Origin: a virus
Strand: one strand, 5' to 3'
IMG/VR virus record: IMGVR_UViG_3300033183_000115
Location: 1 to 33,879 of that record
DNA: 33,879 nt
Positions 10,061 through 21,215 of the stretch are shown piece after piece. Both the position numbers and the translations under genes were made by a program. How positions within the stretch are numbered: the first letter of the stretch is position 1; each line of letters starts with the position of its first letter. The notes under the pieces were generated by a model. That model searched no databases. It saw only the letters and a program-made list of their open reading frames with translations, and had not been told where the DNA came from.

Positions 10061-10084
10061 GAGGGGGCAGTTGCCCGCCCCCTC
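10061..10084 (-). terminator. GC-rich hairpin just downstream of the MCP gene (possible leaky terminator or RNA-stabilising stem)
   Basis: gagggggc-agttgccc-gccccctc forms an 8-bp perfect stem. Only a weak U-tract follows on the minus strand. Confidence 0.4.
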
Positions 10085-10091
10085 CGTGATT

Positions 10092-11042
10092 TTACGAACC
10101 GTTGAGGTCGAAGATGGCAGCGTGTGCCTTTGGCGCGGTTGGCTTGAGCGCCCATTCCACAACGATGTGTGAAGTGGTTGCGTCACCGTCCTTAGCCAAG
10201 TCCTGCTCAAGGAAATTACGACCGTTGAGGGTGCAGATCGAAACGTAGTCAGGGTCGATCAAGAACACCCGGTCGTTTGACAACAAGCGTGACGGCACAG
10301 CTTCAACAGTACCGAAGTCGGTCAGGAAAACACTGGTAGACCCGACGTATGTGACTTCTTTAGCTTTGGTCATGTTGACGTCGTTTGACACCAAGTTGCC
10401 TGACGCTGACAGGTCAGAGAAGTTGGCGCGGTTGGTAGCAGAAGCCACCATCAACCGTGGATTACCGCCGTCTTCCCACGCATCCTGCATGCCGTCTTCA
10501 ATGAGGGCCAGTGTCAATGCGCGAGCCGTACCTGCGGTGATAGTGTCTGTACCGTTACCAGTAGCAAACGCACCTGTGCTGGCGCCGACTGACCCATTGG
10601 TGATCCAGCAAGACAGCGAAGCTGATTTGCGTGGGTCAGAACCGTCACGGGCAACGTCGGTGTCACCGATTGCCTTTTCGATGTCCCGGCGCAGTTCGAG
10701 AGCCTTCAACACCTTCTGGTAGTTGTGTTCCCGTTCACGCCCGGCTGTATCGACGGCGTCCAGAGTACCAGAGGTCGCGAAGACCTTTTTGGAAATCTGG
10801 TGGTAGTTGCCAACGCGGCTGGTAGGCGTGGCCGCAGCAGTTGAGGTGGTGGCACCTTCGTTGTGGTAGTTAGTAGATGACGCAGCGGTCAGCTCCTGTA
10901 CCTGCCACTCGGTAAAGATACCGCGAGAGGTTTCCTTCTTCACATTTGAGAAGATTGGTGTCTCGGCCGGGTCGATCCGGTAAATGATATCCGCGAGCTG
11001 TTCCTTCTCACCAACAGCAGCAGATGTTGCGAATACAGTCAT
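10092..11042 (-). CDS. Major capsid protein (316 aa; SU10/DUF5309-like HK97-fold family, as I recall it)
   Basis: The N-terminus (EKEQLADIIYRIDPAETPIFSNVKK...FTEWQVQEL) matches the hallmark start of that MCP family. The gene directly follows the scaffold gene and is followed by a hairpin. Confidence 0.85.
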   Translation of the reverse strand: MTVFATSAAVGEKEQLADIIYRIDPAETPIFSNVKKETSRGIFTEWQVQELTAASSTNYHNEGATTSTAAATPTSRVGNYHQISKKVFATSGTLDAVDTAGREREHNYQKVLKALELRRDIEKAIGDTDVARDGSDPRKSASLSCWITNGSVGASTGAFATGNGTDTITAGTARALTLALIEDGMQDAWEDGGNPRLMVASATNRANFSDLSASGNLVSNDVNMTKAKEVTYVGSTSVFLTDFGTVEAVPSRLLSNDRVFLIDPDYVSICTLNGRNFLEQDLAKDGDATTSHIVVEWALKPTAPKAHAAIFDLNGS

Positions 11043-11062: not shown

Positions 11063-12082
11063 TCAGGCTTTGTTGCCCATAAGATACTCAACAGCAGCGT
11101 CAATCGTTCCGGCGGCTTCAAACCGCTGGCGCGCTTCACGCTGAGAACGGGTAGCAACTTCGCGCTTGGTCCGTGGGCGTCCTGCCTTTGCCATCTTTGG
11201 CGCCTGACGGGCTTTTTTCTTGGCGTCGGGTTTCTTCGACTGAAGATTGTCCCACTTCCAAGCCTTGTAAAGTAATTCAATCGCGCGAGCGTCAGACGCG
11301 TTTGCGATTTCTTCTTCACTAAAGCCAATGCGGCGCTGTGCGTACTTGATGACCTCCTGACGCTCCGCCTCGCGGACATCGTCATTCGACCATTCAGGTA
11401 TGCGGTTGAGCATGTCGGCACGTTGCGTTTGCAGGTGCTTACGCAATTCCTGCTCCTGCTCGTATGCCCGCTCTTGAGCTACGCGGTACCTTTCGGCTTC
11501 GACCTGCTTCTGCTGTTCCTTGTAGGCATCCCACTCGGTCTTGGCTAGGAACAAGTCACGCTCGCTCATCGTTTCAGACAAGGCTCTCCAGTCAGGTTCT
11601 TGCTCGACTGTCTGCTGGATTTGGGCGCTCAACTGGTCAAGTTGCTGCGCGTAGGCGTCTCGGAGCTGCTTAACCTGTGCCGCCTCTTGTTCAAAGGCTT
11701 TGCGCTGGTTAGCCAATTCCATCGACTTCCTAGTAAATGACTGCTGCCGCTGATAACCGTTTCGCAGCTCGTCTAGGTCTACCTCGATTTCCTCGCCGTC
11801 GATTTTGACTTTGTAGGTCTGTTGAGGCTCCGCGACATCTGCGTCGTCTTCATCATCGTAGTCGTCATCTTCGCCGTCATAAGCATCATCATCCTCGAAG
11901 TCGTCGTCCGGCGCATCTTGTGCGTTATCGGTCTCCGCTTCTGGTGCCTCTGCCTCAGGCTGTTGAGACCGAGCTTCGGTCTCAGGCCGCTCATCTGTAG
12001 CAGTATCCGCTGGGGGATTGCTCAGAAGGCTAATTGCATCATTCATTGAAAGTTCGCCGGTTCCTGATGGATTGTCGGACAT
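11063..12082 (-). CDS. Scaffolding protein (339 aa)
   Basis: Strongly acidic N-terminal third (DDDFEDDDAYDGEDDDYDDEDD), then a long coiled-coil-like Q/E/A/R-rich region. It lies immediately upstream of the MCP. Confidence 0.7.
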   Translation of the reverse strand: MSDNPSGTGELSMNDAISLLSNPPADTATDERPETEARSQQPEAEAPEAETDNAQDAPDDDFEDDDAYDGEDDDYDDEDDADVAEPQQTYKVKIDGEEIEVDLDELRNGYQRQQSFTRKSMELANQRKAFEQEAAQVKQLRDAYAQQLDQLSAQIQQTVEQEPDWRALSETMSERDLFLAKTEWDAYKEQQKQVEAERYRVAQERAYEQEQELRKHLQTQRADMLNRIPEWSNDDVREAERQEVIKYAQRRIGFSEEEIANASDARAIELLYKAWKWDNLQSKKPDAKKKARQAPKMAKAGRPRTKREVATRSQREARQRFEAAGTIDAAVEYLMGNKA

Positions 12083-12090
12083 TTTAATAT

Positions 12091-12378
12091 CTACCTTTTT
12101 CTGTTTAGGGTTGCGCGCATCTTGAAATCATTTAGCTGCGCTTCCGCTAACTTACCATCCTCAACCACGCTTTGAAAATACCCCCTTAACGCGCTAAGAG
12201 ATTGGCATAAATAGTAAACTCGCTCTCTGTTCTCGGCGTCCTTGATGTCGCTAGACTTCCACGCCTCGGTAAACTGTGCGTCGAGATAGTCAAACGCCTC
12301 GACAAATAACTCATTCCGTAGCAGCGCCTCGGCCTTTTCAGCTCTGGCCTGCTTTGCCCTCGCCTTTAATTCGTCCAT
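12091..12378 (-). CDS. Hypothetical helical protein (95 aa)
   Basis: Track ORF lying between the 390-aa protein and the scaffold. Confidence 0.65.
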   Translation of the reverse strand: MDELKARAKQARAEKAEALLRNELFVEAFDYLDAQFTEAWKSSDIKDAENRERVYYLCQSLSALRGYFQSVVEDGKLAEAQLNDFKMRATLNRKR

Positions 12379-12387
12379 AATCTCCCT

Positions 12388-13560
12388 CTACGATAGTAGC
12401 GTGTAGCCCGACAGTTGTGGCGGACGCTTGAAATATTCAGGGTAAGTCGCACCCTGCCGGCGGAAATTAAGGTTTGCCGCTGTGAAATCCTGCGGCGTTC
12501 CAAAGCCTACGCCGTAACGCTGCTGGAAGCCGCCAAGGCCAGTCGGCGCCACGTCAAGCAAGCCCATACGCGCATACGCGCCGGGGGCTGGTGGAACGAC
12601 TGAACCTACGCCACCAGCGCCGGCGCCTGTGTCTAGGCGGCACGCTTGCAAGTCTTCGTCGAAGATGTAGCCTTCCTCGCATTGGCCGGTGACAGGGTCG
12701 ACTGGTTTGATTTCATCACTGTCACTTGACCCACCGCTGTCGCCGACGCCTGTCATTCCTGTGTAAGCGCCTCTGGCTATCAAGTCTTCAACGGTTTTCG
12801 GCGGCCCCAACATCACGTTTGTTAAAGCGTTAATGCCCTGACCAAGTAAACCAAAGCCCGGTGTACCCATTTGGCCGATTGGGCGTCCGGTTGCAAGGTC
12901 AAGCTCATAACCATATGGCTGTGACCCCATCATGCCGGCTATCTTCATGCTCAAGGGCATGCTTGATCTTTGCTCGTCCGTAAGGCCAGCAAGGTTCGTG
13001 GTTATTACTTGACCGCCGGGGCCGACAATCGTTTCAAGTCCAATAGGCAGGCCGGTCACAGGGTCGTACCCACCAGCGTTCAAGTTAACAGGCGGGGTTG
13101 TAATTAACCCCTGCATCCTTGCCCTTTGTTGAGCCGCAAGTGCCTCCCCTGCATATGGCGCTCGTTGCACCCCATAAGTATTGGCAATATTTTGGACAGC
13201 TTGTGCCACAGCAGGTTTTGCGGCTTGAATTGCTTGAGCCTGAATGGCTGCCCTGTTTAAGGCTGCACCATCAACACCAAGGCTGCGAGCAGTAGCAACG
13301 TCAGACAGAATGTCTTTGGTTGCTTGTATTGCAGTAGCTACATTGCTCTCCGATGGATCAAAGCCACCGCTATAATTGAAGTCATCTGCGCTTAACCCAG
13401 CGGCTGCTGCTGCAATATTTTGCTGCACATCTTGGCTTATATCTTCATCAGAAAGACCGGCGTCATCACCGCCACCGGGGTCGCTAGAGCCAAAACAAAA
13501 CATCTGGCGCTGCATAAGCTCGCCATAGTCAACGCCGTTAATTAGATCGCGTATACGCAT
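12388..13560 (-). CDS. Gly/Ala/Gln-rich head-module protein (390 aa); candidate partner or substrate of the adjacent acyltransferase
   Basis: Track ORF. The start is ATG 13560 (23-nt overlap with the acyltransferase gene) or ATG 13515. It contains GLLG/GLLD motifs and a Cys-bounded loop (CEEGYIFDEDLQAC). No known family was recognised. Confidence 0.75.
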   Translation of the reverse strand: MRIRDLINGVDYGELMQRQMFCFGSSDPGGGDDAGLSDEDISQDVQQNIAAAAAGLSADDFNYSGGFDPSESNVATAIQATKDILSDVATARSLGVDGAALNRAAIQAQAIQAAKPAVAQAVQNIANTYGVQRAPYAGEALAAQQRARMQGLITTPPVNLNAGGYDPVTGLPIGLETIVGPGGQVITTNLAGLTDEQRSSMPLSMKIAGMMGSQPYGYELDLATGRPIGQMGTPGFGLLGQGINALTNVMLGPPKTVEDLIARGAYTGMTGVGDSGGSSDSDEIKPVDPVTGQCEEGYIFDEDLQACRLDTGAGAGGVGSVVPPAPGAYARMGLLDVAPTGLGGFQQRYGVGFGTPQDFTAANLNFRRQGATYPEYFKRPPQLSGYTLLS

Positions 13561-13954
13561 AACCAGATCGTCCTTTCAATGATCGCAGCCATTGAGCCTT
13601 TATTTTGTCTCCGTACCGTCTGCCAAGCTCATCCCTGACATACTTAACCCAGCTCGCCTTCAACCCAAACGGTGAAACGATGTCTGGTATAAACAGGTTT
13701 GGGCCAGTGTTCCATTCGTTAGCGCCGATAGAACGCTCGCCCTTCTTCAACTCATCAACCGCCTCATCGCTCACAAAAGCATAAGAGAAAAAGGCAACAG
13801 GCCTATCGTCTTCGCGGATCAAAAAATATTGGTTCCTTTTGATCGGCTGTAAGAAAAACCGTTTTAACGCCACCATTCTCCAATTATTATAATAGTCGAA
13901 AAAGCTGGCTAAATATACCACCTCACTAAAAACGCGATTTACCTGCGATCCCAT
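13538..13954 (-). CDS. HlyC/CyaC-family (RTX toxin-activating) lysine acyltransferase homologue (138 aa)
   Basis: By-eye alignment to recalled HlyC/ApxC sequences covers most of the length. NQYFLIREDDRPVAFFSYAFVSDE matches NQYVLLTRDDYPVAYCSWANLSLE, and EWNTGPNLFIPDIVSPFG matches DWTSGDRKWFIDWIAPFG. The start overlaps the portal stop as TAATG. The gene is AT-rich relative to its neighbours. Confidence 0.65.
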   Translation of the reverse strand: MGSQVNRVFSEVVYLASFFDYYNNWRMVALKRFFLQPIKRNQYFLIREDDRPVAFFSYAFVSDEAVDELKKGERSIGANEWNTGPNLFIPDIVSPFGLKASWVKYVRDELGRRYGDKIKAQWLRSLKGRSGYAYTRSN

Positions 13955-16005
13955 TACTGCGCTCTAGGCAAATTTGTCGATATCTCGGCGTCGGTGACTG
14001 CCTTAGCCACGCGAAGCTCGGCTTCCATTGCCAGCTCCTGCCGGCGGATTTCCATTTCCATCTGCATCTTTTCACGCTCAAGCTGAAGCTCGGCTTGCAT
14101 ACGCTCACGCTTGAGCGCGATTTCGGCTTCAGCTTTCTGCTGTGCGATCTGCATATCCATTTGCGCCTTTTGCTGCGCGGCAGCCACAGCCGGATCAGGC
14201 TGCGGAGGCTGTTGCGCCTGCATAGCCTGCTGCTGCGCGATCATCTGCGGCGCGTTGAAGAACTGGTCCGCATCCTTAAACCCGCCAATCTCAACGATAG
14301 AGCGCAGCGTGTTCACATATTGCGGCATCGTCACGATTGGGTTTTGCGGCCCAAGCTGCATCAGGATTTGCTCCTGCTTCGCCGCAATCTGCGTCAGGAA
14401 CGCGATTTTGGTTTCGTCGTCAGTCGTGCCAAGGCCAACCTGCACGACGGTGTCAAATTCCGACTTCCACTCGGCTGGGTTGATCGGCACAAACTTGTTA
14501 CGCAGGCGCATAATCTGCGGCTTGTTGTCGTGCTTCAGGACAAGCGCCAAGATGCCCTTGAACAAGTCCTTGACGCCGGTCTCGGCCATTGTGCGGGCAT
14601 AGCTTTCCAGCTTCACTTGCGCTCCGCGTACCGTTGCAGCCACAGCCGAAGCTGTCGAAGATTGCAGCGCGTTGGCGTCGAGGCCCTGCGAAGCGGCGCT
14701 CATTCCTGTCCGCTGTTCTTTTACTGTGTCGAGGTAATCCATCAGCGGGCGAATTTCATTGCCAACCGATGCGCCGGCAAGCGGCTGGATCATGCCCGGC
14801 TGCCTTACGCGGATAATCCCGCCAGCCTGCGCGTCCAGCAAGTCGTCCAAATTAACAGCGCCCTCGACGGCAGCGATCCGCGGCAGGGTCGACGAATAGA
14901 CGCTGTCGAGATACTGACGCATCAGCGTAGTCTTGATGACCTGCAAGTCCTCGGTCATGTCGTAGATTGAGCGGCCAACCAAGCGGTGCGGCATCAGGAT
15001 AGGCGACGCAACTGCAAACGGAATGTGGTCCCACGGCTCATTGTGCAGGATGTGCTGGCCTTCCGAGCCAATCGCGCAGATGCGGCGGCGCTCGGCTATG
15101 CCGTCGCCGTCGTAGTCCATTTTGACGATGCACTCGTAATAGATGACGCTACGCATAGTCGGGTCGGACGGGTCAACGCCGGTAGACGCCTCCAAATCCT
15201 GAAAGCGGTTGCTGACTTCCTCATTGACCTTCAGCTCGTCTTCGCCGGCGTATTGCTCAACCTCATCGCGGTCGTAGCCCATAGCCACAAGGTCGCTGAC
15301 GGTCAGGGTGGTGCGGTGCGCCATAAAGTGCGCGTCCTCAAGCGACGTCGCGCGGCGGTTAACCAAAAATTCCTCCGGCGGCACGTTGATGACCTTGATC
15401 TCGCCTTCCTCGCGGGTGACGCGGACGGTCAAGTCGTACTCGGAGCGTAGCGGTATCGTCTCGCCGCTCTCGTCGTCGTAGATGCTTTCCATAACGGTTT
15501 CCATCTGCTCGACGATCTCGACGCTTGGGTCGTTCATCAGCATGACCAGCTCGTCCTCGGACAGGCCGGTATATTCTTCCTCGTCAACTTCCTCGCGCGT
15601 GTCGTAGAAGAACTTAACGACGCCCATACGGAAAAGCAGCGCGTCCTTGAAGAAGGTGTGCAGCAGCTTGTAGCCGTCATTGCGACTGTTGATGATGTAG
15701 TTAACGTAATCAGACGCCTGCTCGGCTGCCTGCTGGTCTTCGCTGGTGCGCGGCGCGAAGCGGACGTATTTGTCGTTGGCGGTGAATACCCGCATCAGGT
15801 TCGGCATGATGGCTTCGACGGTGTCGGCGACTTCGGTGGCGACTACGGCTGACCGGCCCTCAACCTCATTGCCTAGCGGCTCACCCAAATAAAAGTCGAG
15901 AGCGCGCAGACGCTCTTGGGTGTATTCGCTGTCGAAGTGGTTAAGGGCGTCCGTAATCTCGCCCGACACAATCGTGCTTAGTTGCACGTCATCCATTTTT
16001 GCCAT
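13954..16005 (-). CDS. Portal protein (about 683 aa, P22-like with a long C-terminal coiled-coil 'barrel')
   Basis: Large ORF lying between the terminase region and scaffold/MCP. The C-terminal roughly 100 aa are Q/E/A/M-rich and helical (QQKAQMDMQIAQQKAEAEIALKRERMQAELQLEREKMQMEMEIRRQELAMEAEL). I prefer the ATG at 16005 (AAAGGTG upstream) over the GTG at 16017. Confidence 0.85.
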   Translation of the reverse strand: MAKMDDVQLSTIVSGEITDALNHFDSEYTQERLRALDFYLGEPLGNEVEGRSAVVATEVADTVEAIMPNLMRVFTANDKYVRFAPRTSEDQQAAEQASDYVNYIINSRNDGYKLLHTFFKDALLFRMGVVKFFYDTREEVDEEEYTGLSEDELVMLMNDPSVEIVEQMETVMESIYDDESGETIPLRSEYDLTVRVTREEGEIKVINVPPEEFLVNRRATSLEDAHFMAHRTTLTVSDLVAMGYDRDEVEQYAGEDELKVNEEVSNRFQDLEASTGVDPSDPTMRSVIYYECIVKMDYDGDGIAERRRICAIGSEGQHILHNEPWDHIPFAVASPILMPHRLVGRSIYDMTEDLQVIKTTLMRQYLDSVYSSTLPRIAAVEGAVNLDDLLDAQAGGIIRVRQPGMIQPLAGASVGNEIRPLMDYLDTVKEQRTGMSAASQGLDANALQSSTASAVAATVRGAQVKLESYARTMAETGVKDLFKGILALVLKHDNKPQIMRLRNKFVPINPAEWKSEFDTVVQVGLGTTDDETKIAFLTQIAAKQEQILMQLGPQNPIVTMPQYVNTLRSIVEIGGFKDADQFFNAPQMIAQQQAMQAQQPPQPDPAVAAAQQKAQMDMQIAQQKAEAEIALKRERMQAELQLEREKMQMEMEIRRQELAMEAELRVAKAVTDAEISTNLPRAQ

Positions 16006-16144
16006 TTTTTCTAGCACCTTTTGCCGCGCGTTTTGGCGCGGGCTTTGGTTTCGCCGCCTCGACAGTATCGCACACTTCCTTGCTTTGCTCCAGAGGGGGC
16101 TGCGGGCGGCGTATACGGCCCACAGTAGGCCGGCGGATCATCAT
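15989..16144 (-). CDS. Small basic protein (51 aa; MMIRRPTVGRIRRPQPPLEQSKEVCDTVEAAKPKPAPKRAAKGARKNGKNG)
   Basis: Not in the track because it is under 60 aa. Its ATG at 16144 forms an ATGA overlap with the upstream stop, and its 3' end overlaps the portal start. The call is supported only by the coupling pattern and the basic composition. Confidence 0.45.
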   Translation of the reverse strand: MMIRRPTVGRIRRPQPPLEQSKEVCDTVEAAKPKPAPKRAAKGARKNGKNG

Positions 16145-16350
16145 TGCACAGTAACCTTGCGGGTCTTCTTCTTGCCGCCCTTGATCGGTGTGTTGATCTT
16201 TGCGGCGGTCTCAGTGTGACCGTAGCTAGTCTGCACGACCTTAGCGGGGCGTGGATCCAGCACAGTCTCAACGACCGGATTGTTGCCTTGAATACAGCGT
16301 TGCTTTATTTCACAACGGCCACGATACGGGCAATTTTCGCAAACATTCAT
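16141..16350 (-). CDS. Small basic Cys-cluster protein (69 aa; CENCPYRGRCEIKQRC, Lys-rich tail)
   Basis: Track ORF with ATGA overlaps at both ends. Confidence 0.7.
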   Translation of the reverse strand: MNVCENCPYRGRCEIKQRCIQGNNPVVETVLDPRPAKVVQTSYGHTETAAKINTPIKGGKKKTRKVTVQ

Positions 16351-16508
16351 GCTTTTCTCGCTTTCTTCTTTTTGGCGGTTTTGGCCGCCTTCTTAAACGC
16401 GGCAGCGGTTGGCGCACCCTTGTCGCCAGCCTTCCGCATCTTCTCGCCGCTGCCGGCCTTTATGCGGGCGCGTTTTGCGGCGATATTAGCGTATAGTCCT
16501 CTAGGCAT
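16347..16508 (-). CDS. Small Lys/Arg-rich protein (53 aa; [31 protein letters not shown]...KKKKARKA)
   Basis: I trimmed the track ORF 16347..16553 to the ATG at 16508. That gives an 8-nt overlap with the upstream 48-aa ORF. Confidence 0.65.
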
Positions 16509-16647
16509 ATTTCTTCCCCTTTTTCTTAGCTTTGCGGGCCGTCGATAGCGCAATAGCCACGGCCTGCTTTTGTGGCTTGCCGGCTTTCATCTCGGTGCGA
16601 ATGTTCTTCGAGATGGTCTTTTTGCTGTAGCCTTTCTTGAGCGGCAT
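16501..16647 (-). CDS. Small Lys-rich protein (48 aa; [48 protein letters not shown])
   Basis: Not in the track because it is under 60 aa. Its ATG at 16647 overlaps the upstream TAA (TAATG). The K.QA.AIALS.AR signature resembles a widespread small-protein family (DUF6496-like, from memory). Confidence 0.6.
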
Positions 16648-16817
16648 TAGCGTTTCCTCGCTTTTTTCTTGGCTGCTTCGGATAGCTGGCTAAAGTGCAT
16701 CACCTTCTTGCTGGCCGGCGACATACGCGCGCCGGTCATTATCGTGCCGTCGGGGTGCTTATGCACGGCGCCGCGATATTTGGTGCCGTCGCGAAAATAG
16801 TGAATACCCGCTGCCAT
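16647..16817 (-). CDS. Small basic protein (56 aa; [42 protein letters not shown]...)
   Basis: I trimmed the track ORF 16647..16871 to the ATG at 16817, which overlaps the upstream TAA (TAATG). Confidence 0.65.
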
Positions 16818-17134
16818 TATGATCCCTTCTTCCACTTGGTCGATTTGGACTTCGTCTTGCTCGGCGCCCATTTCGTCTTGGCCGCCCAGTATGCCGCAGA
16901 CATTGGCCCCTTGGCAATGTTCTTGGCGTGGCGGCTTTCAAACGCCTTGCGCTGGCCGACCGTCTGGTTCGTCTTCACGCCCTGCTGACCAAAGCGGATC
17001 GTCTTCACCTGATCGCCTGACTTCGCCACAACCACATGCGACTTGGTCGGGTGGCTCGGTGTGCGCTTCGGCTGATTGTAACCGCTAACGCCGGCGCGTG
17101 ATAGGCGGGGGTCTTTTGGCTTGCGTGGGGGCAT
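16817..17134 (-). CDS. Basic protein (105 aa, roughly one residue in four is K/R; PKRTPSHPTKSHVVVAKSGDQVKTIRFGQQG motif)
   Basis: Track ORF. Its ATG at 17134 overlaps the TAA of the 893-aa gene (TAATG). The motif recalls a viral small-protein family (DUF5872-like, from memory). Confidence 0.75.
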   Translation of the reverse strand: MPPRKPKDPRLSRAGVSGYNQPKRTPSHPTKSHVVVAKSGDQVKTIRFGQQGVKTNQTVGQRKAFESRHAKNIAKGPMSAAYWAAKTKWAPSKTKSKSTKWKKGS

Positions 17135-19815
17135 TAGTCTAGCAAGCCTCTAGTTGGTGTTGGGGTGCTGCCTAATAACCCAGAAGAGACGTTTTCGGCA
17201 GAGCCGGCGCCGGCTCTTCCTGCGAAGATGTCTGGGCCAAGCCTAAATCCGTACTTTGTTGCGTATTCTTCGTCGACCCGACGTATTTTTGGGGCGAGAA
17301 CATTTTGAACGAGGTCGAGAACATCGGATCGTCCGCCTTCTTGAAGGATTCTGACATAATCTTGCCCATTTGGATTTCCTTTCCAGTCATTCGTTAAAAG
17401 ATCGCCAGAAGACGCAAAATATTCAAGGTCAACATCTTTATCTATTGAACCCTGAATGATTTGCTTAATTCTGTCGTTTGCAGCCTTAACCACATTTGCC
17501 TTTGCTCTGGCTGCAGCCTTAGGGTTAGCCGGGTCGCCAACATTGGCAAAATGGTTAAAGTGAATAAAGCTAAGCTCACCCTCATCATAACCCGTCAAAA
17601 ACCCCTCTAGCATTATCGGGTTACCATCATTGTCCATCAGGACATTTCCCTTTGCGTCTGTCAGCGGCGACTTCATCGCCTCATCAAGACGGCTACCAAT
17701 AGCAACTGCGTCTTCGCTTGTAAACTTGTTTCCTATTGGCTTAATAGAAATTCCATTTGCTTTCGATTGCGAGTTAATTGAAAACGGACGGTAATACCCA
17801 ACACCTTCCTGACGAAGAGCCAATCCTCTGGCCGCGGCATACATTCTTATGAGCTGCTCATCCTCAGCTTGTATGTCCGGTCTTTTGCCAGCCGCCTTAA
17901 TGCGCGTAGACGCAATCTTTTCAACACGCGACGGATTGATGTCACCCTGCCAATATCCGGGCGCCTCAAAATGACCGGGAGACAAGATGCCAAGCGCCTC
18001 AGTGATTGCGTCGTTGCCTTGATCGTTCTGCATTGCTTGAGCGATGTCAGATGTGTATTCATTCCGTATTTGATATGGCGCATCACTAAGGCCGACCATA
18101 TGACCTGTGCTTCTGCCGGGTATTGCTTCCCACGGCATCCGCGCATAATTTTCTTCAAGAAAATAAGAAAAGTCTTTTACAGCTTTTCCTATTTGCTCCT
18201 CGCTAAAACTCTGGCCCATAGCCTCATCAATTTTTAGCGAAGAATAAGCATCATCGTCTATCACCTCAAGGGTTTTGCCCTTCATTCGCGCAATACCTTG
18301 ATCAAGAGCTTTTTGCCGCACGTTAGCCTTTACTTCAGGTGCTTCCATACGCGCTTTGATTGCAGTCCATATAGCAGCTTGAGCTTGATGAGGCTCCCAA
18401 CCAAGCTCATTTGCCACATCATTTGTCATGCTTTCGATAAGGTCGTATTTTTTAGTTTTTCCGACGTTATCATCCAAAAACCCAAACGCGCGAGCCATCC
18501 ATAAGTCGCTTGTAACACCCTGAACAAGGTTAGGGTCAATCTGGCGCATAAGGTTGATATAAAAATTATTGATCTTGCGGCCATCAAATTGCACACCCTC
18601 TTTCATCAAAAGCTGCGCAGCCAAATCACGCTGCGCGGTGGCAATGTTGTCATAATCCTTTGACGGCCTGTATATTCTGATTTCATCACCGACATTCTGG
18701 CGAATGATACGAGCGCCCTTGCCACCGGCACCCTTGAATATGGCGTCAGCTTCAAGCGGCCCTTTTTCGACAATAACCTTGTCTCCGACTTGCCGTGCTT
18801 GAACCCCCGCCGCGCGCCCTCCAGCAGCGCGAGCGGCTGTTTGCGCCGCTTTCATATCAGCATAAGTACCTAAGGTTTCCCGCTTGATAGACCCAAGCAT
18901 TTCACCCCTAAATATATCACCGCCGGCCATTGCTCGGTTATATGCTTTAACGGCGTTTGTGGTATTCACTTGCACGGTTGTTTGTGGTGAATATATAGCA
19001 ATCAACTGAGCGATTTGTTCAGCGCGGCCTTTGTCACCGCCTGCTATATCCAAAATAGCGTCGCTTGAACGCTCATACCACAATCGACCGGGGGCGCCCT
19101 CTCTGGCAAGCTGCCGAATATCTTGTGACAGTAGCCCATAAGCAGCGCCAGCTTCTGGTGATTGGTATCGTTCAACCATACGCCCATATTGCGTTTGACG
19201 CGCTTCCTCAAGCGCCCGGATCATCTTATCTTCAGTCATAGTTGGTTTTGGTGGCAGACCACGACCCATTCCGCCGGGGCCGGAACCAAGCACCATCTCA
19301 CCAGCTCTTGCCGCCCTTGTAGCAGCCATAGGCGCCACTGCGGCTGATCCGATGAACATTAGTGGGTCATATTCAATAGGCTCGCCTTCTGGTGATATGG
19401 TGCCATATCCACCAAGCATATTTACACCAGCAGCTTGCTGCTCTGCCAACATACGGTTGGCAAGGCTTGGCACAGCCATAGCTGTCTGCGCGGCTTGTTG
19501 ACGCTTCTCTGGAGAAGTCATTAACCCGCCAAAATAGTCAAAAGCCCCAGTGACGGCACGATACGCCGGCATGTACTCAAAGCCAAATTCAGGCTCACCA
19601 TATTGGGCTGGCTGGTAACCTGTGGCGCTGTATGTGCCTGCGGCAGCATCCATCATAGGCGCGTATGTTGTAGCCTCAGGTTGTAAAACAGGACGCCTAA
19701 TAGGCGTAAAAATATTTGCCAGTGACCCTAAAAGGCCGCGCTCTTGTTCGCGTGTCCTACCGTATTCATAGCCGGGTTGTCCAACGCGCGTGATGTTCTG
19801 ATCTAAAAGGCCCAT
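17134..19815 (-). CDS. Large protein of unknown function (893 aa) between terL and portal; possibly a virion-packaged or ejected 'polyvalent-like' protein
   Basis: The track ORF starts at a TTG (19827). The ATG at 19815 overlaps the terL TAA (TAATG), so I prefer it. The protein begins MGLLDQN and ends RGLLD. Parts of the gene are visibly AT-richer than flanking genes. Confidence 0.85.
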   Translation of the reverse strand: MGLLDQNITRVGQPGYEYGRTREQERGLLGSLANIFTPIRRPVLQPEATTYAPMMDAAAGTYSATGYQPAQYGEPEFGFEYMPAYRAVTGAFDYFGGLMTSPEKRQQAAQTAMAVPSLANRMLAEQQAAGVNMLGGYGTISPEGEPIEYDPLMFIGSAAVAPMAATRAARAGEMVLGSGPGGMGRGLPPKPTMTEDKMIRALEEARQTQYGRMVERYQSPEAGAAYGLLSQDIRQLAREGAPGRLWYERSSDAILDIAGGDKGRAEQIAQLIAIYSPQTTVQVNTTNAVKAYNRAMAGGDIFRGEMLGSIKRETLGTYADMKAAQTAARAAGGRAAGVQARQVGDKVIVEKGPLEADAIFKGAGGKGARIIRQNVGDEIRIYRPSKDYDNIATAQRDLAAQLLMKEGVQFDGRKINNFYINLMRQIDPNLVQGVTSDLWMARAFGFLDDNVGKTKKYDLIESMTNDVANELGWEPHQAQAAIWTAIKARMEAPEVKANVRQKALDQGIARMKGKTLEVIDDDAYSSLKIDEAMGQSFSEEQIGKAVKDFSYFLEENYARMPWEAIPGRSTGHMVGLSDAPYQIRNEYTSDIAQAMQNDQGNDAITEALGILSPGHFEAPGYWQGDINPSRVEKIASTRIKAAGKRPDIQAEDEQLIRMYAAARGLALRQEGVGYYRPFSINSQSKANGISIKPIGNKFTSEDAVAIGSRLDEAMKSPLTDAKGNVLMDNDGNPIMLEGFLTGYDEGELSFIHFNHFANVGDPANPKAAARAKANVVKAANDRIKQIIQGSIDKDVDLEYFASSGDLLTNDWKGNPNGQDYVRILQEGGRSDVLDLVQNVLAPKIRRVDEEYATKYGFRLGPDIFAGRAGAGSAENVSSGLLGSTPTPTRGLLD

Positions 19816-21215
19816 TAAACCACCCAACTGTTCTTTGGTTTCAGACTGCGATTGTGATTATAACCCCTTGAGTAGCCGCCAGCAACCGCACCTTGGCCGG
19901 CGAAGGATAGCACAAACGCGTCGGCCACGTCAGGCGACCTCTGCCCGCGTCGTTTCATCTCGTCCTTGCTCTCGACCTTCAGCTTGCCGGTCGACAAATA
20001 CTTATACCTAATCCCCGTCAACTCCGCGATCAACGTGTCATCCGACGGTATCTTGCAGTCACGCGCCTCAAACCACTCGCGGCACGACCAAAACAGCTCA
20101 TCGCGGAGCCGGTTGAAGCGGTCCTTTAGGCTGGCCGTCTCACTAACCGACACAGCGACCGCCGGCATGTCCAGCTCGCGCAGGCGGTCCGCCAAACCGG
20201 CGCCAAGGCCAATCGCGTCAATATATATCGCGGTGGGTCGCTTGCTGTACGGTACGGCGTCGTATTCCGACAACACGATGCCGGCAAGCTCCATCAGGTC
20301 CTTATTCTGCCACGTCTTGATCGGCTCGACCAGCACGTTGCCCTGCCGCTTTGCCAGCGCCGACCTGTCACCGCCAAAGCGCGCGACGTCCAGCCCCCAC
20401 ACGACCGGCGTCGTCGGTCCGGCTTCAACGTCACGCGTCACCGCCTCCTCGACCAAGTGCAGCGGCAGAAGCACGTCGTCGGATTGCGTCGGAAACTCGC
20501 CCAAGACGCGCACGCGGAACACGTTACTCTCGGCGCCGTATTTTGCCGCCATTTCGTCGATAAACTTCGGGTCGACGTAATCGCCCTCCTCGCAAGACAC
20601 AGTGATGCAATGCCACTTGTCGCGGTCGGAGTGAAACGCGTCGTAGAAGTACCCGTCAGACCGCGTTGGGTTCCCGCACATGATAATCTTCGCCCCCGGC
20701 GTACTTAGCGCGCCGCTGGCGGTCTCAAAGATGACATTCGGCACGCCAGACGCCTCCTCGACCACAAACAGCATGTGCGGGCTGTGAAAACCCGCCAAGC
20801 TCTCTGGGTTCTCGCGGCGGCTGGTACGCGCCACGGCGAAACTGTCGGTGGCGCCTTTGAGCGATATCTTGTCGCTCTTGAACTCCAGCAGGTCTTTGAA
20901 CGCCTGCGGCATATTGCGCGCCCAGCGGTCGATTTCCGTCCACAGAACGTCCGACAACTGATGCGCGCTGTTCGCCGTCACCGCCACTTTGCACGGATAA
21001 TGCGTCATAAGCCACCACAGCACGACCCAGCTCTCAAATGCGGTTTTTCCGACGCCGTGGCCCGATTTTATCGCCACGCGGTCGTTGTCGGCTATGGCCT
21101 TTAGGGCTTTCGCCTGCCACGCCTGTGGGGTGGCTTGCAGCACCTCCTCGACGAATAACGTCGGATCGGCGCGCATCGCTGCGATTGCGTCGACGGTGGC
21201 TTTGGTGTCGTTCAT
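19815..21215 (-). CDS. terL: Terminase large subunit
   Basis: Walker A-like KSGHGVGKT and Walker B LFVVEEASG are present. RNase-H-like nuclease Asp motifs are VWGLDVARFGGD, IYIDAIGLGAGLADRL and SPDVADAFVLSF. I chose the ATG at 21215 (MNDTKATV, GGAG 8 nt upstream) over the track start at 21260. Confidence 0.93.
   Translation of the reverse strand: MNDTKATVDAIAAMRADPTLFVEEVLQATPQAWQAKALKAIADNDRVAIKSGHGVGKTAFESWVVLWWLMTHYPCKVAVTANSAHQLSDVLWTEIDRWARNMPQAFKDLLEFKSDKISLKGATDSFAVARTSRRENPESLAGFHSPHMLFVVEEASGVPNVIFETASGALSTPGAKIIMCGNPTRSDGYFYDAFHSDRDKWHCITVSCEEGDYVDPKFIDEMAAKYGAESNVFRVRVLGEFPTQSDDVLLPLHLVEEAVTRDVEAGPTTPVVWGLDVARFGGDRSALAKRQGNVLVEPIKTWQNKDLMELAGIVLSEYDAVPYSKRPTAIYIDAIGLGAGLADRLRELDMPAVAVSVSETASLKDRFNRLRDELFWSCREWFEARDCKIPSDDTLIAELTGIRYKYLSTGKLKVESKDEMKRRGQRSPDVADAFVLSFAGQGAVAGGYSRGYNHNRSLKPKNSWVV

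Follow-up and report, generated by a model that had tools for sequence, protein, structure and literature searches.

Toxin-activating acyltransferases (TAATs) such as HlyC are known to attach fatty acids to RTX cytolysins, and in 2021 one class of CdiA effectors was added to their substrates; in both cases the lipid drives contact with the membrane of the target cell. What, then, is a gene of this family doing in the head-morphogenesis operon of a tailed phage, set between the genes for the portal protein and a 390-aa protein? We addressed this question in IMG/VR virus record IMGVR_UViG_3300033183_000115, positions 1 to 33,879 (this whole 33,879-nt stretch is the window, and window coordinates are positions in it), where an earlier sequence-only reading had recognized a HlyC/CyaC-type homolog by eye. 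We found that the TAAT gene and an N-terminal leader of the 390-aa protein (p390), here called the CFG leader, are one cassette that is inherited and exchanged between phage sublineages. Sequence comparison makes it probable that this phage lipidates a protein of its own; to our knowledge, no tailed phage has been shown to do so with an enzyme that it encodes.

The gene module lies on the minus strand, and the enzyme and its presumed partner comprise the following features.

13538..13954 (minus): TAAT/HlyC-family homolog, 138 aa, a short form with Tyr at the catalytic-His position; Pfam PF02794, 77.9 bits; phrog_20210 (unknown function), E 3.4e-17
13889..13891 (minus): Tyr22 codon (TAT), at the position of the catalytic His of HlyC, ApxC, and CdiC, by ApxC alignment
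13682..13684 (minus): Asp91 codon (GAC), the Asp member of the catalytic His/Asp dyad of TAATs, by alignment with FIDWIAPFG of ApxC
12388..13560 (minus): p390, 390 aa, acidic, Gly/Ala/Gln-rich, predicted to be mostly disordered, presumed partner or substrate of the TAAT
13480..13560 (minus): leader of p390, 27 residues (MRIRDLINGVDYGELMQRQMFCFGSSD); its first 8 codons overlap the 3' end of the TAAT gene
13495..13497 (minus): codon of the invariant leader Cys22
12391..12708 (minus): C-terminal domain of p390, residues 285-390 (KPVDPVTGQCEEGYIFDEDLQACRLD...YARMGLLDVAPTG...GYTLLS), with the pair Cys294/Cys307, from the conservation profile of 120 homologs

A HlyC-family enzyme with tyrosine in place of histidine

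The 138-aa protein is a true member of the TAAT/HlyC family by sequence and fold, as the sequence-only reading had supposed. Its match to the Pfam HlyC profile (E 7.8e-22, against a gathering score of 25 bits) spans residues 9-125 of 138 and profile positions 2-114 of 127, and phmmer against the PDB returned ApxC (4WHN) as the sole match (E 5.6e-10). When its AlphaFold2 model, built on a 28-sequence alignment (predicted local distance difference test (pLDDT) 86.5, predicted template-modeling score 0.81), was compared by Foldseek, the 4WHN chains came out on top with E 2.5e-10 to 1.2e-9 and template-modeling (TM) scores of 0.72-0.76, the runners-up being generic GNATs at E > 2e-3. The ten best-kept family positions matching the consensus in this protein are G84, Q42, W81, P95, A59, G97, L15, D91, P37, and P52. 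A search of 185,579 bacterial and archaeal species genomes found no relatives of the clade in cells or prophages, and another TAAT clade, P0133, was not found in IMG/VR. Elsewhere among the family representatives the TAAT domain also occurs in fusions: P0138 (334 aa) joins an unannotated 200-residue N-terminal domain to a Tyr-variant TAAT (FYNNW), P0136 and P0151 each carry two TAAT domains in tandem, and in P0269 a P450 fragment is joined to a TAAT.

The sequence-only reading had cautioned that the catalytic His of HlyC appeared to fall on a Tyr while the catalytic Asp had a counterpart, and the alignment with ApxC agrees on both counts. The His of ApxC (PLHRKW) aligns with Tyr22 (DYYNNW), so that the residue conserved as HlyC His23, ApxC His24, and CdiC His37 is replaced here, and Tyr22 is kept in every close homolog that covers the position. 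The Asp of ApxC (FIDWIAPFG; ApxC Asp93, CdiC Asp107) aligns with Asp91 (FIPDIVSPFG), which is invariant in the window clade. An exhaustive profile search yielded 741 TAAT family representatives at E <= 0.001, and the best 149 of these matches were aligned with the window protein, an ApxC fragment, and P0131 to give 152 sequences, in which the His column holds H 99, Y 25, and F 3 and the Asp column D 129 and E 18 (Asp or Glu in 147/152). Because Tyr occupies the His column in 25 of these 152 sequences (about 17%), it is, on the evidence of this alignment, a recurrent variant and not a one-off lesion. No compensating substitutions alongside the change from His to Tyr were found.

The TAAT gene is under strong purifying selection. 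Its pairwise ratio of non-synonymous to synonymous substitution rates (dN/dS) ranges from 0.04 to 0.19 and lies around 0.08 for 10 distinct alleles, with synonymous sites saturated, and the open reading frame (ORF) is intact at 138 aa in 17/17 loci examined. Tyrosine is a competent general acid or proton donor in many GNAT acetyltransferases. Within the TAAT family itself, the mutants ApxC H24A and CdiC H37A retain partial activity, and the CdiC study favors a direct attack, with Asp as the base that takes a proton from the lysine and with the role of His confined to protonating the departing thiolate (PMC8510554). Since Tyr recurs in the family, the Asp is kept, the gene is under purifying selection, and the His-to-Ala mutants remain partly active, the Tyr-variant enzyme is probably active.

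Co-inheritance of the enzyme and the p390 leader

The TAAT gene is embedded in the head-morphogenesis operon and translationally coupled to the portal and p390 genes. As had been read from the sequence, its start overlaps the portal stop (TAATG) and its ORF shares 23 nt with that of p390; a Shine-Dalgarno-like motif, AAAGGA, lies 10 nt ahead of the p390 ATG. The cassette has no more promoter-like sites than expected by chance, and the TAAT gene is not flanked by any strong terminator-like site on the minus strand. Its neighbors in the operon are the following.

13954..16017 (minus): portal protein, 687 aa; PF23899 SU10_portal, E 1.4e-205; PDB portals 7sxk, E 1e-118, and SU10 7z44, E 5e-60
12091..12378 (minus): 95-aa conserved protein (p95), between p390 and the scaffolding gene; phrog_8161, E 3.6e-9
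11063..12082 (minus): head scaffolding protein; phrog_3927, E 8.5e-56
10092..11042 (minus): major capsid protein (MCP), SU10_MCP family; PF17236, E 5.7e-73; PDB 9ny2, E 6.8e-37

We surveyed synteny in 80 IMG/VR loci retrieved through p390 and in eight further loci, where the conserved order is portal, TAAT if present, p390, p95, scaffold, and MCP. Among 66 classifiable junctions, a TAAT stands between portal and p390 in 18 (the window counted) and is absent from 48, in which the portal gene abuts that of p390; phage C72C1, the closest GenBank phage, is likewise without a TAAT. The presence of the enzyme is matched exactly by the beginning of p390, which carries the CFG leader (MRSRDLIDGFDYxExMQRQMFCFGS) in 18/18 loci with a TAAT and in 0/48 loci lacking it. 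Most of the latter instead carry the leader xIRGQDHLLAYITPEEAxLLxxGGxGxxGPMGIPAF, and a few have other short forms. Sixteen columns separate loci with the enzyme from loci lacking it, every one of them within p390 residues 1-27. The portal, p95, scaffold, and MCP contain no co-varying columns except a single conservative I/V column in the portal; p95 is present in all related loci, and the portal C-termini abutting the cassette are near-identical between relatives with and without the enzyme.

The association extends well beyond close relatives. Two further TAAT clades, P0132-like (L089-L092) and P0135-like (L108-L113), share only 32-37% identity with the window enzyme and are likewise encoded between the portal gene and a p390-like gene in more distant relatives; their downstream proteins begin MSKLKYLIDGKADEQFENMLWCFGG and MWDRDFLDKWDMGKRMESRLFCFGS. 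All three clades have a Cys at residue 22 within [FW]-C-F-G (one locus has Ala for Gly), and the leader follows the general pattern M..R/K..LIxG....M.[FW]-C22-F-G-[SG]. Among 126 loci scanned, the regular expression [FW]-C-F-G at residues 21-24 matched none but TAAT-linked ones. Portal, TAAT, and p390 genes overlap or lie within a few nucleotides of each other in the window, L003-L011, L014-16, L020, L035, L037, L059-60, L089-92, and L108-113. In the reverse direction, a degenerate DNA pattern of the window-clade leader retrieved 13 IMG/VR contigs, of which 12 are the TAAT contigs and the 13th ends 22 nt upstream of the match.

Comparison of individual loci locates the edges of the exchanged segment. 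Between L037, which has the TAAT, and L021, a member of the same sublineage that lacks it, portal identity is mostly 82-99% per 100-nt window and 75% in the last; the two become unalignable from the portal stop, which is the left boundary of the cassette, through the TAAT gene and approximately the first 300 codons of p390, after which identity returns to 66-98%. Conversely, L037 and L020 belong to different sublineages and share TAAT genes with 94-97% DNA identity, whereas their portal genes agree at only 53-83% per 100-nt window, mostly 65-83%. Recent horizontal exchange of the TAAT is demonstrated by this near-identity between phages with diverged portals. The horizontal acquisition that the sequence-only reading had suspected from a low-GC island is thereby shown directly, and the island itself is real: G+C content is 44.6% in the TAAT gene, against 57.8% in the portal gene, 54.5% in the p390 gene, and 54.6% in the whole window. 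The dip, of about 10 points in the window and 8-9 points in L003 and L007, fits recent exchange.

The co-inheritance of enzyme and leader is strict and ancient, with an asymmetric boundary that falls exactly at the portal stop on the left and always past the whole leader on the right, which argues that the leader is a recognition element or a target of the enzyme. Since relatives lacking the enzyme have a different conserved leader on the same protein, the TAAT and the CFG leader together look like an interchangeable alternative to a self-sufficient leader.

Two further observations concern the leaders themselves. A third type, MFNxDNINNIDPAAKFESKMLCNFGGGG, is found in L086-L088 (p390 starts at about 3111, 2139, and 305); it resembles the CFG leader and has a Cys at residue 23, and in these loci the portal gene abuts that of p390, with no TAAT within the locus sequence covered. 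The enzyme may have been lost from these genomes and the leader left behind, or a TAAT may be encoded elsewhere in them. The TAAT-independent leader (RGQDHLLAYITPEEAxLLxxGGxGxxGPMGIPAF) appears to be modular: besides the p390 N-termini of L021, L023-L033, L038-L054, and others, it stands close to the N-terminus in three other large phage proteins, one with a LysM domain (roseophage CRP-901), one annotated as "tape measure" (phage DSL-LC04), and gp43 of pelagiphage HTVC106P (motif coordinates in their loci: L127 3501-3614, L128 3501-3587, and L129 3501-3599). The recurrence of the motif in these proteins weakly suggests that such leaders have a role on proteins acting at the cell envelope.

The presumed partner protein and the case for its acylation

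The p390 family is large (more than 313 cluster representatives), and neither p390 nor its relatives match any family in Pfam or PHROG; run as a profile against the sequences in the PDB, p390 gave nothing below E 0.45. Its description as Gly/Ala/Gln-rich was accurate (G 57, A 47, Q 27), and it is acidic, with 40 Asp plus Glu against 23 Lys plus Arg. In 120 homologs, a conserved N-terminal segment of about 25 residues gives way to a Gly/Ala/Gln-rich middle region that is hypervariable; conservation is strong again over the C-terminal 105 residues, which contain a Cys pair and whose extreme end is still recognizable in phage C72C1. Only Cys22, Cys294, and Cys307 are invariant in all TAAT-linked p390 proteins. 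We found no transmembrane segment, RTX nonapeptide repeat, or Gly-Lys (GK) motif in p390. The sequence-only reading had compared the gene order with the activator-then-substrate order of hlyC-hlyA: the idea of a partner gains strong comparative backing from the co-inheritance of enzyme and leader, while the likeness to an RTX toxin fails for want of repeats, a Gly-Lys motif, or a conserved Lys. Its further suggestion of a membrane-inserting DNA-ejection component is unsupported for a protein with no family match and a poor structural model.

Comparison with known systems places the pair closer to contact-dependent inhibition than to RTX toxins. With HlyC, CyaC, and ApxC and their protoxins, it shares the enzyme family, the fold, the catalytic Asp, and a small enzyme gene just upstream of a presumed partner. 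It differs in the Tyr for the catalytic His, in enzyme length (138 aa against the 183-aa ApxC chain in 4WHN), in the position of the gene in a phage head operon, and in the partner, which is no RTX toxin and lacks the nonapeptide repeats (GGxGxDxUx), the Gly-Lys site, and any conserved Lys. Nor does the locus resemble an hlyCABD-type operon, having no adjacent substrate with repeats or Gly-Lys sites, and no type I secretion genes were noticed among the window proteins profiled, which matched packaging, structural, and replication families (the last a primase/helicase) and in no case a secretion family. By analogy only, a short conserved N-terminal leader, a variable region, and a dedicated enzyme recall leader-guided modification in the biosynthesis of ribosomally synthesized and post-translationally modified peptides, and a conserved leader coupled to an assembly step recalls the capsid-targeting leaders of T4 internal proteins and P22 gp7. 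The closer likeness is to CdiC-CdiA of class IV contact-dependent inhibition, in which a small TAAT gene also lies just upstream of that for a large, largely unstructured protein; the phage pair differs in its Tyr for His and in a partner that is a head-module protein with an invariant-Cys N-terminal leader. CdiC, which keeps the His/Asp dyad, lipidates a non-RTX, largely unstructured segment of CdiA by placing 3-hydroxydecanoate on Lys1467, a Lys that is not invariant among homologs, and the lipid promotes contact with the target-cell envelope (PMC8510554).

We favor leader-directed fatty acylation of p390 by the Tyr-variant TAAT with host acyl-acyl carrier protein (acyl-ACP), a reading about evenly poised between right and wrong. 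Late in infection, the enzyme would dock on the CFG leader and transfer a fatty acyl chain from host acyl-ACP to p390, as HlyC does on proHlyA and CdiC on the receptor-binding domain of CdiA, with Asp91 acting as the base and Tyr22 protonating the leaving thiolate in place of His. Once lipidated, the acidic, disordered p390 would gain affinity for a membrane or a hydrophobic surface, either during assembly or after exit from the capsid at infection, and in relatives lacking the TAAT the self-sufficient alternative leader would take the place of enzyme and CFG leader together. Candidate acceptors on p390 are the invariant Cys22, Lys285 of the window clade, and the non-conserved lysines, the last retained because the acceptor in CdiA is not invariant either; acylation at Cys22, which we raise as speculation, would be a reaction new to TAATs. 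The proposal in its most specific form, in which a Tyr-variant phage TAAT lipidates a head-module protein at or guided by its leader, possibly on Cys22, with an acyl chain that engages the host membrane and a cassette swapped as a plug-in among marine phages, is unlikely to hold in every part.

Several observations weigh against acylation of p390. The catalytic His is absent, as is the family-typical Ser at position 19, where the window protein has Phe. Across 19 distinct TAAT-linked p390 proteins from the three TAAT clades, no Lys column is conserved at 60% or more, and the window-clade leader contains no Lys at all, so that classical site-specific lysine acylation is not evident. The AlphaFold2 model of p390 is poor (pLDDT 50, 38-sequence alignment), and both a virion location and the acylation of p390 are putative. 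Part of the co-inheritance is forced linkage, since the leader sequence adjoins the enzyme gene and shares 14-23 nt with it. Finally, the link to a structural gene is not universal among phage TAATs: in pelagiphages HTVC103P and HTVC104P, the TAATs lie at about 9.5-10 kb of the record (tblastn), and in HTVC103P, where the context was inspected, the gene is in the early/replication region beside those for single-stranded DNA-binding protein (SSB), primase, and polymerase, away from structural genes. As a separate matter, a TAAT-specific Lys in p390 was sought and none emerged: Lys285 is present in 11/11 window-clade proteins and also in 17/37 loci lacking the TAAT, and is Pro or Ala in the other two clades.

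One alternative, to which we assign a low probability, is that the protein retains its TAAT fold to bind the CFG leader without any catalysis, as a chaperone or assembly factor that would serve, for example, p390 solubility or its delivery to the portal or procapsid. The substitutions at the catalytic His and at Ser19 fit such a role, as do the partner without a conserved Lys and the small size of the phage protein (130-138 aa, against a median of 156 aa in the His-type family), and tight coupling to the leader fits binding as well as catalysis. On the other side, the protein retains Asp91 and the other near-invariant family positions; Tyr variants make up about a sixth of the 152 aligned family sequences with no decay of the Asp, and both the partial activity of His-to-Ala ApxC and CdiC (PMC8510554) and the role of Tyr as general acid in GNATs speak for catalysis.

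It is also possible, though in our estimation improbable, that the enzyme is active on another substrate, such as a small molecule, a different protein of the virion, or a host protein with an envelope or regulatory role, and that the leader merely hitch-hikes through adjacency and overlap. The lack of any conserved Lys in p390 and the placement of the HTVC103P and HTVC104P genes agree with this, the 23-nt overlap forces co-transfer of the first 8 leader codons, and a 105-aa basic protein encoded upstream of the portal accompanies the enzyme in 7/7 loci with a TAAT, against 9/27 without. Hitch-hiking nonetheless accounts poorly for a right recombination boundary that always takes in the whole leader of 22-27 residues, about 60 nt past the overlap, when the left boundary is exactly the portal stop. 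Nor does it account for a leader that is almost invariant ahead of hypervariable p390 sequence, or for an association that survives divergence of the enzyme to 32-37% identity over three clades. The other head-module proteins offer no co-varying columns apart from the one in the portal, and five of the six small basic proteins encoded upstream of the portal show no association with the TAAT.

A reading of the gene as the decaying remnant of a moron, of no present use to the phage, is suggested by its patchy distribution, low GC, and lost catalytic His but is effectively refuted by the selection analysis, and the intact ORFs, the shared slot in three deeply diverged clades, and recent spread at 94-97% identity make it very improbable as well.

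Other phages, neighboring genes, and implications

Existing annotations assign a TAAT gene to at least seven phage isolates of marine origin, the Pelagibacter phages HTVC112P, 026P, 111P, 115P, 103P, and 104P and the Roseobacter phage CRP-235, and one pelagiphage preprint figure labels a TAAT. The sequence-only reading had been aware of no description of fatty acylation of a virion or ejected protein. This needs qualifying in view of the annotated genes; our literature search turned up neither functional work on a phage TAAT nor any account of a virion protein lipidated by a phage-encoded enzyme. In five of six isolate contexts inspected, the TAAT directly precedes the gene for a large protein, with overlap in four. 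The large protein is a J-like tail protein in HTVC112P, 026P, and 111P, the Lys/Gly-rich gp45 in HTVC115P, which weakly matches a membrane protein in PHROG, and the 491-aa gp29 in CRP-235, where a lysozyme gene follows. The isolate TAATs resemble the window enzyme in being phage-encoded and, in these five, upstream of a large-protein gene, and several are Tyr variants by eye. They differ in sequence (at most 27-33% identity to the window clade and its nearest relative P0132) and in context (siphovirus tail tip, unnamed large proteins, or early region). Homology of p390 to HTVC115P gp45 or CRP-235 gp29 was not significant, and, unlike p390, the downstream proteins of the isolates begin MG... 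and lack the CFG leader.

This shared MG start was considered as an N-terminal glycine acceptor and set aside, p390 starting with MR; the J protein of phage lambda also starts MG. The J-like proteins of HTVC112P, 026P, and 111P (L115 4387-6546, L116 4393-7299, and L001 8390-11698) carry an extra hydrophobic N-terminal extension, starting MGG[IV][IV], ahead of the usual conserved J N-terminus. It measures about 35 residues in HTVC112P and 50-60 in 026P and 111P, and it is Lys-rich in the latter two and contains no Lys in HTVC112P.

The window appears to be a complete JGI contig, and the phage is a podovirus (marine or freshwater) with terminase, portal, adaptor, nozzle-like protein, and tail fiber; one window protein matches the PHROG "DNA ejection protein" family, and no tRNA genes were found in the window as a hint of the host. 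Between the 897-aa gene described below and the portal gene, at 15989..17134 (minus), lie six small Lys/Arg-rich ORFs of 48-105 aa that overlap or abut, all without a match in Pfam. Relatives differ in which of them they carry; the 69-aa one is nearly universal (33/34 loci), and the 105-aa protein is encoded at 16817..17134. The sequence-only reading had drawn attention to these mini-proteins, and they do exist; a tie to the enzyme did not hold up, and they were ruled out as TAAT substrates, since five of the six are equally or more frequent in loci without the enzyme. A defense or anti-defense role for the cassette was also given up in the absence of any PADLOC match, the sole literature link being a generic list of toxin-antitoxin domains.

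Other features of the module are independent of the cassette. The 897-aa ORF at 17134..19827 (minus), between the gene for the large terminase (TerL) and the small basic proteins, has as its sole match DUF7178/phrog_3842 (residues 393-494); it starts MGGLMGLL, and its G+C content at third codon positions is 0.43, against 0.74-0.77 for portal and TerL. It is a second accessory insertion in the genome, being rare in related loci (4/27 without and 0/7 with the TAAT). A strong G+C-rich palindrome of 8 pairs (GAGGGGGC...GCCCCCTC) at 10061..10084 falls within the 51 nt that separate the MCP stop from the following gene, a position that suggests a terminator or attenuator after the capsid gene. In several relatives, the Rfam model RF00028 (gathering score 50) identifies group I introns, at 62-94 bits, inside the MCP gene or at its start: L020 8467-8770, L002 (phage C72C1) 4875-5115 (minus), L017 5632-5881, and L040 3011-3226. 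Such introns probably explain why the "major head protein" of C72C1 in GenBank is in two pieces with small opposite-strand ORFs between them; the window MCP gene is uninterrupted.

The enzyme family and its annotated phage copies were already known, whereas the cassette structure, the leader with its invariant Cys22, and the swap with an alternative leader are new here. The result is a compact pair, a 138-aa enzyme and a 27-residue leader, exchanged as a unit and substituting for another leader on the same head-module protein. If the proposed acylation is correct, it would be the first phage-encoded enzymatic fatty acylation of a protein from the structural module of a tailed phage, adding a post-translational modification to phage assembly or genome delivery and giving the large p390 family its first functional handle. 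It would likewise provide a test of whether Tyr can replace the catalytic His and of whether Lys is the sole acceptor in the TAAT family, and a leader-directed acyltransferase of such small size could serve as a protein-lipidation tool. For the abundant pelagiphages and roseophages, whose TAAT genes have been annotated and ignored, it would supply a working hypothesis.

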